Positions 29,264 through 62,031 of a DNA stretch of 64,000 bases are shown here, piece after piece. How positions within the stretch are numbered: the first letter of the stretch is position 1; every line of letters starts with the position of its first letter. Below the pieces are notes generated by a model. It saw nothing but the letters and a program-made list of their open reading frames with translations, ran no database searches and was not told the origin of the DNA. The stretch comes from an uncultured SAR86 cluster bacterium (GTDB lineage Bacteria; Pseudomonadota; Gammaproteobacteria; Magnimaribacterales; D2472), in contig CABWYS010000004.1 in the NCBI GenBank assembly GCA_902509555.1, positions 1,771 through 65,770 on the forward strand, given 5' to 3'. The position numbers and the translations under genes were made by a program.

Positions 29264-29788
29264 TTAGTTGGTTATAGTTCCAGACCATATTAATGGCTTT
29301 TTAACCATTCGTTCTGCTGGAGTAAGTATCTTGATTCCGAATTCTTCACGTAAGTCACAAACCCTTTGATCCATTAAAGAATCAGGCGACACAAAAGGCC
29401 ACTTTTTATTCATTTGCTTAGCACGCTTTCTTATTTTAAATTTAATGGGCACTAGTTTAATAGCAACCATTAAGAGTCGAAAGTAACCAGGATCGCGCCA
29501 AAAATCTTTATATAGTTGCTTTAGTTCTGGAAGTTTGTTGTACGCAAGTAATTCTTTAAGTTTCCATTTTGTTCCCAGGAATACCCATGAATCTAACATA
29601 GATTCTTGTTCCAAAGAGGTATCAAGACCAAAAATTACATGAGTTGCATCATGATCTCTGATAATTGTTGAACCAGGCTCATCAATAAGCTGTTTTTTGC
29701 CATTTGATTGTAAGTAGGCTCGATACTCCTCTAACCCCTCAGCAAGTGTGATCTTGCAGTCTTGAGACTGAAAAGATAAATTAGTCAT
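29264..29788 (-). CDS. Coq4-like metal-binding protein (hypothetical)
   Basis: HDATH-x11-E motif and a ...DLREEFGI C-terminal motif resembling the Coq4 family; start overlaps the engB stop. Confidence 0.6.
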   Translation of the reverse strand: MTNLSFQSQDCKITLAEGLEEYRAYLQSNGKKQLIDEPGSTIIRDHDATHVIFGLDTSLEQESMLDSWVFLGTKWKLKELLAYNKLPELKQLYKDFWRDPGYFRLLMVAIKLVPIKFKIRKRAKQMNKKWPFVSPDSLMDQRVCDLREEFGIKILTPAERMVKKPLIWSGTITN

Positions 29789-30365
29789 CCCTGAATCCTA
29801 CCAGAATCTTTCTTAATTTATCAATCCCAGTTTCTTTTGACGATGAAATTGCCAAAACCTCTATAGCATTAGTTGCTTTGCTCACTTGCTTAATTGTCTT
29901 CATTAAAATATTTTTAGATACCTTATCCGATTTAGTTAGCACAGGAACATAAGCAACATCAAAACTTTCACACAATTCAATCATTTCAAGATCAATTGGT
30001 TTAAGTGGATGCCTTATATCCATAAATATTAGTACTGCCTTGAGGGCTTTTCTATTTTTAAAATATTCTCCAAGTAATGGTCCCCAATCTTTTTTTCTTG
30101 AGTGACCTGATTTAGCAAAACCGTAGCCAGGTAAGTCAAGAAGCTTAAATCCATCTTCCATTTCAAAGAAATTAATCTCAGTTGTTCTTCCAGGAGTTTT
30201 GCTTATTCTTGCTAATTTTTTATTACCTGTTAAAGCATTCAATGCACTTGATTTACCCGCATTTGATCGACCGGACAATAAAACCTCTATTCCAGTATCT
30301 TCTGGAAGATTTTTATGCTTTGTTACGCCAAATAAAAAAGCAGTATTTTTGAAAGGATTTTTCAT
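29781..30365 (-). CDS. engB: Ribosome biogenesis GTPase EngB/YihA
   Basis: GRSNAGKSS, SKTPGRT, DLPGYG, TKSDK; ATG at 30365. Confidence 0.96.
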   Translation of the reverse strand: MKNPFKNTAFLFGVTKHKNLPEDTGIEVLLSGRSNAGKSSALNALTGNKKLARISKTPGRTTEINFFEMEDGFKLLDLPGYGFAKSGHSRKKDWGPLLGEYFKNRKALKAVLIFMDIRHPLKPIDLEMIELCESFDVAYVPVLTKSDKVSKNILMKTIKQVSKATNAIEVLAISSSKETGIDKLRKILVGFRDD

Positions 30366-58972: not shown

Positions 58973-61132
58973 CTATACACCGCCCATGTTAGCGTTTTTA
59001 AAGCTTAATAAATCTGATCTATCCTCTGCAGCAGGGGCTTCACCAAATGCGCCTGATTCTTCGGCTAGTTTTTTCAATAATGGAGCAGGTTTCCAGAAAT
59101 GCTCATCTAACTCAGAGAAGCCACTCATTTTATTAATAACTTCTGATAAACCCAGTTGATTTGCATAGAACATTGGCCCGCCTCTCCAGATTGGAAATCC
59201 ATAACCATTTATATAGACTATATCCATATCACCGGATCTTTGAGCTACACCCTCTTCTAAAATCCTCGCACCTTCATTTACAAGAGCCAAAATACATCTA
59301 TCTATAATTTCTTGATCAGATATCTCTCTTCTTACAATATTATTTTGATCAGATATCTCTTTGTAAATAGACTCATTTTCTGGCGCAGGATTTGGAGCTC
59401 TTGAGCCTTCTGAATAATTATAAAAACCTTTAGAAGTTTTTTGACCAAACCTATCTTGTTCACACAAAGCATCTGAAATTTTATTGGCTAGCGGAGTTTC
59501 CATATTAGCTAGTTTGCGAGCTCTCCATCCAAGATCTAACCCAACCAAATCCATCATTCTAAATGGACCCATGCTCATGCCAAAAGATTCTAAAGCGCTG
59601 TCTACTTGATTTGGCAGAGCGCCTTCAAGCAATAGCATATTTGCTTGGTAAGTGTATCCAGCTAACATCCTATTTCCTATAAACCCTGGAGCATTTAGTG
59701 AAACAACGGCAGCTTTACCCATCCTCTTCCCCAGAGACATTACAGTTGCCATGGTTTCGTCTGAGGAAGCCTTTCCTCTAACGACTTCAAGCAACCGCAT
59801 CACATTTGCGGGACTAAAAAAGTGAGTGCCCACTACTTTTCCAGGCCTATTAGTAGAAGCAGCTATTGCATCAATATCTAACCCTGAAGTATTGGATGCC
59901 AGGATGGCATGATCTTTTGTAATCGCATCTAAGCTTTTAAAAATTTCTTGTTTTAAATCAAGATTTTCATAAACAGCTTCAACCACAATATCGACATCAG
60001 ATAAATCATCATATGTAAGTGTTGGAGTTATTAGACCCATAACAATATCTTTTTGTTCTTGAGACATCCTTCCTCTATCTACCATCATTTGATAATTTTT
60101 TTCTATGACTCCCATCCCTCTTTCTAGATTCTTTTCATCTTGATCAAGAACTAAAACGGGTATACCAGCATTTGCAAAGTTCATTGCAATTCCTCCTCCC
60201 ATTGTTCCCGAGCCAACAATCCCAGCAGAATTTATTGGAAGAAGAGGCGTATCTTTTGGAATATCAGAGATTTTGGAAGCAGCACGTTCGCCAAAGAAAA
60301 TATGAATCATGGCTTCACGCTGAGGATTCATTAAACATTCTAGGAAATATTCAGACTCTTTTTCCATACCAACATCAAAATCATCTTCATTAATGGCAGC
60401 TTCTACACAAGCTATAATTTGACCAGGAGCAAATTGACCTCTTCTGCTTTTTGCTGCCAATGCTTTGGCTTCGGCAAGAATATTATCATCACCCCTAGCT
60501 TCAAGAACCTTTTCATTTTTATCTCTTACCTTGGGATGCACCTCTGATCCAATCTTATCTTGAAGAAATGCTATCGCATCATCCATAAGAGAATTTTCTG
60601 AAATTGCATCTATTACTCCTTGCTGTAAAGCCTTTTTAGCTGATATAGGCGTACCAACGAGCATCATTTTTAGAGCTTGTGATGGTCCAATTAGTCTTGG
60701 CAGTCTTTGTGTTCCCCCTGCGCCAGGTAATAAGCCTAAATTGACCTCAGGAAGACCTACTATGGCTTTGTTTGTGCCCATTCTATAATTACATACTAGT
60801 GCTGTTTCCAGTCCGCCGCCTAAAGCAGTACCATTAATAGCAGCTAAAACAGGTTTTTTGCTAAATTCAATGTCTTTTAATGTTGTGTGAAGGTCAGGCC
60901 CATCAGACTTTTGGCCAAATTCAGAGATATCCGCTCCAGCAATAAACGACCTTCCAGCTCCAGTGAGGATAATTCCTTCAATTGAATCATCTTCGTTTGC
61001 TTTTGCAATATATTCTGCTAAACCGGCTCTGACGCCGCTACTAAGGGGATTAACCGGGGGATTATCTACCTCTAAAATAGCAATATTTCCATTCACGCTG
61101 TAATTAACCTTACCCTTTAACTCATTTGTCAT
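58973..61132 (-). CDS. Bifunctional enoyl-CoA hydratase / 3-hydroxyacyl-CoA dehydrogenase
   Basis: AGADI, GGGLE, PEV.LG.LPG.GGTQR, G.GTMG.GI, EAVYE, SNTS, HFFSPA, GFIGNR. Confidence 0.95.
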   Translation of the reverse strand: MTNELKGKVNYSVNGNIAILEVDNPPVNPLSSGVRAGLAEYIAKANEDDSIEGIILTGAGRSFIAGADISEFGQKSDGPDLHTTLKDIEFSKKPVLAAINGTALGGGLETALVCNYRMGTNKAIVGLPEVNLGLLPGAGGTQRLPRLIGPSQALKMMLVGTPISAKKALQQGVIDAISENSLMDDAIAFLQDKIGSEVHPKVRDKNEKVLEARGDDNILAEAKALAAKSRRGQFAPGQIIACVEAAINEDDFDVGMEKESEYFLECLMNPQREAMIHIFFGERAASKISDIPKDTPLLPINSAGIVGSGTMGGGIAMNFANAGIPVLVLDQDEKNLERGMGVIEKNYQMMVDRGRMSQEQKDIVMGLITPTLTYDDLSDVDIVVEAVYENLDLKQEIFKSLDAITKDHAILASNTSGLDIDAIAASTNRPGKVVGTHFFSPANVMRLLEVVRGKASSDETMATVMSLGKRMGKAAVVSLNAPGFIGNRMLAGYTYQANMLLLEGALPNQVDSALESFGMSMGPFRMMDLVGLDLGWRARKLANMETPLANKISDALCEQDRFGQKTSKGFYNYSEGSRAPNPAPENESIYKEISDQNNIVRREISDQEIIDRCILALVNEGARILEEGVAQRSGDMDIVYINGYGFPIWRGGPMFYANQLGLSEVINKMSGFSELDEHFWKPAPLLKKLAEESGAFGEAPAAEDRSDLLSFKNANMGGV

Positions 61133-61277
61133 AATTATCTCTGGATTAAAAAACTAATCTGAAATTATATATATATTTAGAGCTTTGGGCTCAAAATATG
61201 TTGATTCTTAGTCGACTTCTTGCAAAAATAATAAAAATTTATATATTAAAATAATTTATATTTATTTATCATTTATA

Positions 61278-61305
61278 TTGATATTTAATTATAAGTATAT
61301 ATAAT
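61278..61305 (+). promoter_or_regulatory. sigma70-type promoter for the structured RNA / microprotein
   Basis: TTGATA-16 bp-TATAAT with an extremely AT-rich upstream region; predicted start about 61312, just before hairpin 1. Confidence 0.55.
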
Positions 61306-61311
61306 ATATTT

Positions 61312-61397
61312 TTTACCAGCATTTCTCTCCCCCTATGATTTGTTGGTACTTCTCTGGAATTATGGAGGGCTTCGGCCCTCCATCTCTTAATTAGAGG
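61312..61397 (+). ncRNA. Candidate structured RNA (sRNA or 5' leader), family not recognised
   Basis: Hairpin UACCAGCA/UGUUGGUA with CUCUCCCCCU loop; perfect 9-bp stem AUGGAGGGC-UUCG-GCCCUCCAU; small CUCU/AGAG stem over an SD. Confidence 0.6.
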
Positions 61398-61406
61398 TTT
61401 ATTACT

Positions 61407-61496
61407 ATGAAAGCACAATTAGTTGAAAAAGTTGAATTAGTTACATTGGTCTCTATATTCATCTCCTCTGTTTACGCTATATCTCCATTAGTGTAG
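61407..61496 (+). CDS. 29-aa hydrophobic microprotein (not in ORF track)
   Basis: MKAQLVEKVELVTLVSIFISSVYAISPLV*; GAGG SD 9 nt upstream; fills the gap to the gpx gene. Confidence 0.6.
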   Translation: MKAQLVEKVELVTLVSIFISSVYAISPLV

Positions 61497-61506
61497 TATT
61501 TAAAAC

Positions 61507-62031
61507 ATGAAAAATCTTTTTATCCTTACATTTTTAATAAGTTCGTTCGGTGTATTTGCGTGCTCTGAATTGCTTAATAGCAACCTAAGAGTTTTAGACT
61601 CAGATGACGAGAAAAACTTGTGTGAATACTCAGGAAACGTAGTATTAGTAGTAAATGTTGCAAGTAGATGTGGTTATACCCCTCAATATGCAGCTCTTCA
61701 AAGGGTTTACTCTAAATACAAGGATGATGGTTTTGTAGTCATAGGGATCCCATCCAGAGATTTCAAGCAAGAATTTTCTGAGGAAGCAAAAGTTGCAGAA
61801 TTTTGCAGTACCGAATATGGAGTTGACTTTCCAATGTTTGCTACTGCTAAGGTGAAAGGTAAAAATGCTCACCCTTTCTACAAAAAACTTATAGCAGCTT
61901 CTGGCAAAGAGCCTAGATGGAATTTTGCAAAATATTTAATTGGAAGAGATGGCGAGGTAATCGATCATTACAAGTCTAGAGTAACACCAGAATCTGAGAA
62001 ACTAATTTCAGCTATCACAGCAGTACTTTAG
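61507..62031 (+). CDS. Glutathione peroxidase family protein (Cys type) with signal peptide
   Basis: VNVASRCGYTPQY, FC...YGV.FPM, WNF.KYL. Confidence 0.94.
   Translation: MKNLFILTFLISSFGVFACSELLNSNLRVLDSDDEKNLCEYSGNVVLVVNVASRCGYTPQYAALQRVYSKYKDDGFVVIGIPSRDFKQEFSEEAKVAEFCSTEYGVDFPMFATAKVKGKNAHPFYKKLIAASGKEPRWNFAKYLIGRDGEVIDHYKSRVTPESEKLISAITAVL

Follow-up and report, generated by a model that had tools for sequence, protein, structure and literature searches.

A conserved small RNA with a C-rich loop and a membrane microprotein gene upstream of a glutathione peroxidase gene in SAR86 bacteria

Introduction

Repeated C-rich hairpins characterise the cuckoo/CcsR and 6C RNAs. In the double-hairpin RNAs of Burkholderia, as described in parts of PMC5688073, transcripts of 57-92 nt carry a CU-rich loop complementary to the ribosome-binding site (RBS) as well as a second hairpin, and dispersed paralogues share an upstream motif. 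According to excerpts of PMC3771888, sX13 represses mRNAs with a 4G motif via C-rich loops and without Hfq, and the polA-engB slot that holds it also holds Spot 42 and alpha-r7; part of PMC8575079 places ErsA at the same slot, and anti-hemB is described in PMC1950547 (excerpt). The Hfq-independent ChvR of Caulobacter crescentus represses a TonB-dependent receptor by direct pairing (PMC6237742, in part).

Here we analyse an intergenic element of a small-genome gammaproteobacterium, an uncultured SAR86 cluster bacterium, within a window of 64,000 nucleotides (the whole stretch of DNA that was analysed), and find it to be a real, uncatalogued small RNA (sRNA) with a microprotein gene. By analogy, its closest work-alikes would be the Burkholderia double-hairpin RNAs, sX13 and ChvR, but by the tests for membership applied here it belongs to none of them. 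With the Burkholderia RNAs (RF02278, 'Betaproteobacteria toxic sRNA'; ncS03, ncS05, ncS27 and ncS62), as far as the excerpted source portrays them, it shares two hairpins, a CU-rich unpaired loop complementary to the RBS and a terminator. The loop differs (UCUCCCCCU here, CUCCUCC in RF02278), as does the bacterial class, and a conserved microprotein gene follows the RNA here; furthermore, RF02278 has 3-5 dispersed homologues per genome, whereas most genomes here have one strong copy and 10 have two. The sRNAs of the polA-engB slot (sX13, anti-hemB/ncS04 RF02837, ErsA, Spot 42, alpha-r7) resemble it in their C-rich apical loop but have two or three seed hairpins, compared with one here. In contrast to them, the RNA lies before a glutathione peroxidase-family gene (gpx), its promoter is of the sigma70 type and carries LysR-like dyads instead of being of the GAACTT-N16-GTCTAA type, and the window's own polA-engB gap is occupied by a protein gene. 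Hfq-independent action on a TonB-dependent receptor, as proposed below, would be the likeness to ChvR, which in the excerpted description has one target, is under two-component control and is alphaproteobacterial, and which differs also in that the RNA here matches nothing in Rfam. The cuckoo/CcsR and 6C RNAs have in common with it a C-rich single-stranded loop as predicted seed and are set apart by its single C-rich hairpin and, again, by the lack of an Rfam match.

Across the window nothing came near an Rfam gathering score (best match 23 against 56 bits, on the opposite strand), in line with the first-pass annotation, which had recognised no family; seven homologous loci gave only neighbouring tRNA-region matches, and no tRNA or tmRNA was found in the window. 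RF02278 (gathering threshold 50 bits) had no match at the element in five genomes, nor did covariance models of RF02837, sX13 and Pseudomon-1 match it. Among the papers listed on SAR86 RNAs and regulation, judged by title and opening of the abstract, we found no description of this RNA; a counterpart among the unnamed ocean psRNA groups (Shi et al. 2009) is possible. The annotation's proposal of an undescribed system thus holds for the RNA, which is uncatalogued in Rfam, and not for its kind, C-rich-loop, Hfq-independent sRNAs being known.

Results

A conserved RNA precedes a microprotein gene and gpx

The gap that holds the element had been taken for the largest in the window and is the third-largest by a crude ORF call (at least 80 aa); its flanking genes are those that the first-pass annotation had named. 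The features are as follows.

58973..61132, reverse strand: divergent FadJ/FadB-like gene of fatty-acid oxidation; family f4 lacks it at this position
61266..61305, forward strand: conserved promoter block, -35 TTGATA at 61278-61283 and -10 TATAAT at 61300-61305 (column conservation in 49 loci)
61312..61390, forward strand: small RNA of about 75-80 nt, its predicted ends placed by the promoter and the terminator-like hairpin
61314..61348, forward strand: hairpin 1 (P1), 8-bp covarying stem (two-sided changes at 7 of the 8 pairs across 34 sequences)
61322..61340, forward strand: C-rich loop, consensus CUCCUCUCCCCCUAU, predicted seed (median unpaired probability 0.87, 49 homologues)
61352..61359, forward strand: conserved linker CUCUGRAA, only in gpx-linked copies of family f1
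61362..61390, forward strand: hairpin 2 with a weak U tail, resembling an intrinsic terminator and predicted to be leaky (the 10 nt downstream of the stem have a median of 5 T across 49 gpx-linked copies)
61407..61496, forward strand: 29-aa single-helix membrane microprotein, motif E-x3-L-x3-F-x2-S-x2-A-x2-P (dN/dS 0.20; helix model)
61471..61499, forward strand: predicted gpx promoter of leaderless type, TTTACG-17-TAGTAT, inside the end of the microprotein gene
61507..62031, forward strand: exported glutathione peroxidase-family gene (gpx)

The source genome, which is 70% complete, belongs to family f1; f2, f3 and f4 denote other families in the same order. Among 138 family genomes with a gpx match we inspected 50 gpx loci (the 30 best and 20 covering all 10 genera), and the promoter and RNA were present in 49 of them, the fiftieth being cut by a contig end, while the ORF was present in all 50. 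For the RNA part (61312-61392) the folding energy is -28.8 kcal/mol (z = -5.0), and none of 500 shuffles was as stable. Across 45 distinct alignment rows 97.6% of the cells pair and 10 of the 14 pairs change on both sides, which none of 500 shuffles equalled; slid alignment controls were just 37-56% paired. Covariation is present in both stems, and the loop is the best-conserved part of the RNA, yet unpaired. Hairpin 1, with CUCUCCCCCU in its loop at 61325-61334, and hairpin 2 (61362-61383, 9 bp with cUUCGg) are present as the first-pass annotation had described them; the UUCG tetraloop is not conserved. Its third hairpin, said to cover the Shine-Dalgarno sequence (SD) of the microprotein gene, was found in the source sequence alone and is unconserved in the alignment. 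The switch between two folds that it had suggested also fares poorly, as the loop:hairpin-2 and loop:SD folds lie 15.8 and 13.5 kcal/mol above the ground state, while the loop:hairpin-2 pairing probability is at most 0.0001 in 49/49 homologues (secondary structure; pseudoknots lie outside the model).

The RNA also occurs apart from the microprotein gene

A covariance model detected strong copies in 38/40 f1 genomes and a second copy in 10 genomes, which fall into the genera g7 (1/1) and g9 (9/10); none was found in the 70% complete source genome. All ten second copies have P1, the loop and a better terminator U tail (5-8 T, median 7) but neither the CUCUGRAA linker nor the microprotein ORF, and opposite each of them lies a convergent gene for exonuclease I. 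Because these copies carry no ORF, the RNA is a unit independent of the ORF. A trans-acting sRNA with an anti-SD-like loop, one of the readings offered by the annotation, is therefore supported by covariation, the unpaired loop and the ORF-free paralogues, whereas its reading as a cis switch finds no support, given the RNA's occurrence without the ORF and the unconserved hairpin 3 and alternative folds.

A P1-only model matched 38/40 genomes in f1, 12/30 in f4, 12/40 in f3 (12/13 in the f3 genus g15) and 0/40 in f2. The f4 RNA is about 55-60 nt long, has the same upstream dyad and no linker, and was found in 19/19 loci opened, which had been picked by RNA or peptide matches; the microprotein gene comes immediately behind it or is set off by a spacer or by a second small ORF. 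In part of f4 (L119:1078-1182, L146, L147, L150, L154, L159, L161) a hydrophobic ORF of 34-35 aa, with no Pfam match, lies between the two. In 5/5 f2/f3 genomes ykuD and gpx are immediate neighbours, and both the RNA and the ORF are missing between them. A class-wide P1 search matched 4/150 other genomes (E 5e-4 to 0.009); three of these matches look like chance or unrelated hairpins and were set aside, and the fourth is an engB-slot RNA. Pattern scans scored 4 of 80 loci among the matches listed for genome contigs as the RNA, and gave 18 matches in viral contigs, none with promoter and terminator on inspection.

A microprotein under coding selection and a predicted gpx promoter

The 29-codon ORF, which the annotation had read as a membrane microprotein, proved to be a real one: its dN/dS of 0.20 (24 genus sequences) indicates coding selection, compared with 0.09 for gpx (23 sequences) and 1.5 and 4.7 for the other frames of the ORF, and the variable columns by codon position are 19/9/27 of 28. 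A 33-aa homologue is modelled as one helix (pLDDT 91). A peptide profile matched 39/40 f1 genomes (single copy, syntenic), 22/30 in f4, 2/40 weakly in f3 and 0/40 in f2, and 77 clusters among 1.84 billion proteins. The microprotein matched no Pfam family and gave only weak PHROG matches for stand-alone forms; there was no tblastn match in GenBank phages, a P0071 query found nothing in viral contigs, and the best Atlas score was 0.82, a lead at most. The microprotein looks like a free-standing, signal-peptide-like helix, and our guess is that it modulates an inner-membrane complex.

At 19 loci on viral contigs (L520-L538, P0052-P0077; 11 opened) stand-alone microprotein forms of 28-34 aa have SSB, UvsX-like and virion genes as neighbours, and the RNA had no match at 16 viral microprotein loci. 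On other large marine phage-type contigs the same sequence forms the N-terminus of longer, exported-looking proteins (phrog_35372), which we take to be CsgF-like.

A TAnnnT box lies 4-9 nt before the gpx start in 44/50 loci and an SD in 0/50; the background for such a box is 153/909 source-genome starts (about 17%, in a slightly narrower window). With this box of its own and no SD, gpx is likely transcribed from a separate leaderless promoter, independently of the RNA. The stop and last codons of the microprotein gene double as this predicted promoter (61471-61499). Genome G287 was left out of the counts for this box and of those for loop/site covariation and outside receptors below.

Among metatranscriptome contigs from four of six small-share runs, a single 336-nt contig, from one run, spans 61340-61675, and contigs of this sort give neither ends nor strand; cover is absent at 61275-61330, which carries no weight as a negative. 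In run X1 one contig connects 61488 back with 61406 via a spacer-like 20-mer, as would a circularised fragment that begins shortly after hairpin 2 and stops where the ORF stops; it is a single record and may be an artefact.

LysR-type dyads overlap the RNA promoter

The sigma70-type promoter TTGATA-16-TATAAT (61278-61305) proposed by the annotation is present and was kept with the RNA in the 49 loci; it matches the consensus at 11/12 positions and is the best of seven sites, compared with a mean of 5.0 promoter-like sites, all weaker, in shuffled sequence. Conserved dyads of LysR type (T-N11-A) overlap it (TTATMA-N5-RTTGATA-N6-TATAA) and form a putative LysR operator. The promoter block is found in 7/10 second copies as well, and the first dyad in 17/19 f4 loci; in the source genome the RNA promoter is the sole site of the operator matrix.

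Only one LysR protein is shared by the four f1/f4 genomes tested; it is BsrA/LeuO-like, encoded divergently from an acyl-CoA dehydrogenase gene and present in 39/40 f1, 24/30 f4, 36/40 f2 and 0/40 f3 genomes. Nine of the ten second RNA copies lie within about 4 kb of its gene, and the tenth is on a 2.8-kb contig. In Pseudomonas aeruginosa BsrA binds and represses the sRNA PA1112.1, and its strongest ChIP peak among the listed direct targets precedes an sRNA (excerpts of PMC8407307). Between the LysR gene and the divergent acyl-CoA dehydrogenase gene lies a conserved box, TTATAA-N5-RTGAATA (L461-L490), that resembles, without matching it exactly, the TTATMA-N5-RTTGATA of the RNA; on the matrix of the RNA promoters it scores lower than they do. 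The BsrA/LeuO-like protein likely controls transcription of the RNA, judging from these sites and gene positions; the differing box and the presence of the regulator in f2 argue against this control. An OxyS-like, OxyR-driven RNA was considered and rejected, as the sole LysR found in G077 (96% complete) and G144 (95%), both of which carry the RNA, is BsrA/LeuO-like.

GGGG sites at the starts of TonB-dependent receptor genes

No hfq was found in 77 genomes of the order (57 at least 90% complete; controls positive), which fits loop-presented C-rich seeds such as those of sX13. The anti-SD of the source genome is normal. Among its 909 start regions the best loop duplex is with a TonB-dependent receptor gene (G000:C26:7103), at UAGGGGGAGA over the SD, with 10 contiguous pairs and -20 kcal/mol. 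The GGGG of this site is kept in 12/14 orthologues and in 15/16 further (paralogue) receptor matches. At starts in the source genome GGGG occurs in 5/10 receptors (C26, C36, C27, C11, C2) and in 24/961 other ORFs; when only SD-bearing starts are counted the figures are 5/10 and 17/240 (p=6e-4), although such p-values are overstated as genomes are related by descent. The other GGGG genes include what we take, from their sequences, to be isocitrate lyase-like, acyl-CoA ligase-like and dehydrogenase genes. Across 13 genomes of the order GGGG is found in 38/88 receptors and 2/90 neighbour genes (f1 15/30, f2 14/30, f3 6/17, f4 3/11; f1 neighbours 1/31), in a sample of 90 loci that were the best 30 each of 54, 76 and 52 matches, with heuristically called starts and two loci dropped for want of a start call. 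Among the TonB receptors across the order, those of L255-L344 included, a subset keeps a plain AGGAGG. Receptors of other Gammaproteobacteria have GGGG in 2/24 cases (26 loci, two without a start), a sample biased to best-scoring, BtuB-like receptors.

Duplex energies at starts were not enriched over coding controls (36 versus 60 of 909 at -12 kcal/mol or lower). The exact 10-nt site before an ATG occurs in 7/40 f1 genomes versus 17/40 in f2, which is without this RNA; two of the seven have it only via the RNA's own antisense strand, and several sites precede ORFs of few codons. AGGGGG is also simply a good SD through G-U wobble. Loop/site covariation was inconsistent (A before the G-run in 11/15 versus 5/14, p=0.07), and f4 does not fit. 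For the GGGG receptors of f2, either the engB RNAs of that family do the same job or GGGG is an SD variant; since the engB loci of f2 bear other hairpins with a CCCC loop, that family is no clean negative control for GGGG.

Hairpins at the polA-engB slot of sister families

In g15 a look-alike of the P1 hairpin lies between polA and engB in the eight loci opened, with a terminator without a G-run. An f1-only nhmmer profile matched three of four g15 loci with E values of 3e-4, 0.004 and 0.02 per 1.2 Mb and gave 1.4 for the fourth (background best 3.4, own genome), in one lineage and over a short alignment. Other f2/f3 genera have different CCCC-loop hairpins at the slot (at engB in 3/3 f2 loci opened), and an engB-slot RNA of a distant gammaproteobacterium scores 38.5 bits against anti-hemB, under the 49.5 cut-off. 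Uncatalogued C-rich-loop RNAs lie 3' of engB (L104, L164, L166, L167, L169-L171, L178) in f2, f3 and one distant gammaproteobacterium, and the majority have promoters of the sigmaE type.

GAACTT-N16-GTC boxes, of the GAACTT-N16-GTCTAA type that we take to be sigmaE-type, are present at 13/15 engB-slot loci of f2, f3 and one outside genome, including g15, g17, g18 and f2 engB loci. None was found at three f1/f4 engB loci or at the three gpx-type or second copies tested (L005, L089, L119). No such RNA was seen at the slot in the three f1 genomes and one f4 genome opened. In place of an sRNA, the gap in the window (29270-29790, reverse strand) contains an ORF, about 165-170 aa long and presumably Coq4-like, in which an RDHD motif occurs; the same is seen in L172 and L173. 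Loss of rpoE as the cause of the promoter change was rejected, an rpoE homologue being present in 74/77 genomes. The RpoE-like sigma factor scores markedly lower and is more diverged in f1/f4 than in f2/f3, a division of the families that coincides with the loss of the engB-slot RNA. Separately, a conserved gap of at least 350 nt lies downstream of era (L105, L113, L114, L120 (genus g12), L126) and, in g15, after suhB; it ends in a strong terminator and has conserved sequence upstream, possibly another non-coding RNA.

Relocation of the engB-slot RNA with promoter rewiring is plausible from these comparisons: the RNA before gpx may have descended from, or replaced, the sigmaE-type RNA still present at polA-engB in sister families. 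Convergent origin of the g15 hairpin and the gpx-linked RNA is a possible alternative.

Discussion

With a probability of roughly 0.55, we propose that this conserved, two-hairpin RNA of about 80 nt acts in trans, without Hfq, on G-rich RBSs of uptake mRNAs, and that read-through expresses the microprotein. Pairing is predicted between its exposed C-rich loop and the G-rich (AGGGGG-type) RBSs of TonB-dependent receptor mRNAs and of other uptake and catabolic mRNAs; we infer that this pairing occurs in vivo and would block translation. Read-through of hairpin 2, as a weak terminator, likely expresses the conserved membrane microprotein.

The receptor sites might owe nothing to pairing with this RNA, a reading we consider rather unlikely: it accommodates the GGGG receptor starts of f2, where this RNA is missing, the lack of genome-wide duplex enrichment at starts and an exact site that is not family-specific, but leaves unaccounted for the specificity of GGGG for receptors among SD-bearing starts, the conserved receptor at the top of the duplex ranking and the rarity of GGGG in the outside receptors, biased as that sample is to best-scoring, BtuB-like ones. 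The RNA could instead be a cis-acting leader, an attenuator or riboswitch in which a ligand, a protein or a pseudoknot between the loop and the nascent GGAGGG would set termination at hairpin 2 against read-through into the microprotein gene (and gpx). The weaker U tails of gpx-linked compared with stand-alone copies, the confinement of the CUCUGRAA linker to gpx-linked f1 copies and the one metatranscriptome contig that bridges 61340-61675 speak for such a leader, as does RNAalifold's pairing of the linker with hairpin 2, obtained on a first alignment in which the hairpin-2 loops were misaligned. Yet P1 and its loop recur in 10 copies with nothing downstream to regulate and at polA-engB, there with a terminator without a G-run; f4 copies lack the linker and still keep the ORF; the alternative folds are 13.5-15.8 kcal/mol worse; and GGAGRR/YYCUCC stems are common terminators in these genomes. 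Moreover, a -10 box belongs to gpx itself, and in 5/5 f2/f3 genomes gpx comes straight after ykuD and the RNA is missing. We regard a leader as unlikely.

That the peptide is a membrane toxin silenced by the structured RNA, a type I toxin-antitoxin system as the first-pass annotation had also considered, is suggested by a single hydrophobic helix of toxin-like size and by peptide relatives at 19 viral loci. We hold this to be very improbable, given that RNA and ORF are on the same strand rather than antisense, that no conserved hairpin masks the SD, that the ORF is near-universal in f1 with one syntenic copy per genome (39/40), that the RNA also occurs without the ORF, that the phage relatives lack such an RNA (0/16 loci), and that the peptide belongs to no Pfam family.

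A far-reaching extension of the trans-acting reading, which we put forward as doubtful speculation, would make the RNA a master switch that acts after transcription in a dominant ocean lineage with streamlined genomes. An ancient envelope-stress RNA of polA-engB would have moved, been cut to one seed hairpin and been rewired from sigmaE to a fatty-acid-linked LysR protein; it would set the translation of about half of the TonB-receptor repertoire through a GGGG 'address code' without Hfq, and the co-expressed microprotein, captured by large marine phages, would act on the same envelope import/export machinery.

The locus adds an uncatalogued RNA family and an uncatalogued microprotein family of hosts and phages, and may be an instance of a polA-engB sRNA that was relocated and whose promoter was rewired. 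Regulation is generally held to be sparse in streamlined surface-ocean bacteria, and no hfq was found in this order; if the proposed action is true, an sRNA with a GGGG target code would offer a handle on how these bacteria ration the uptake of organic carbon across the outer membrane.
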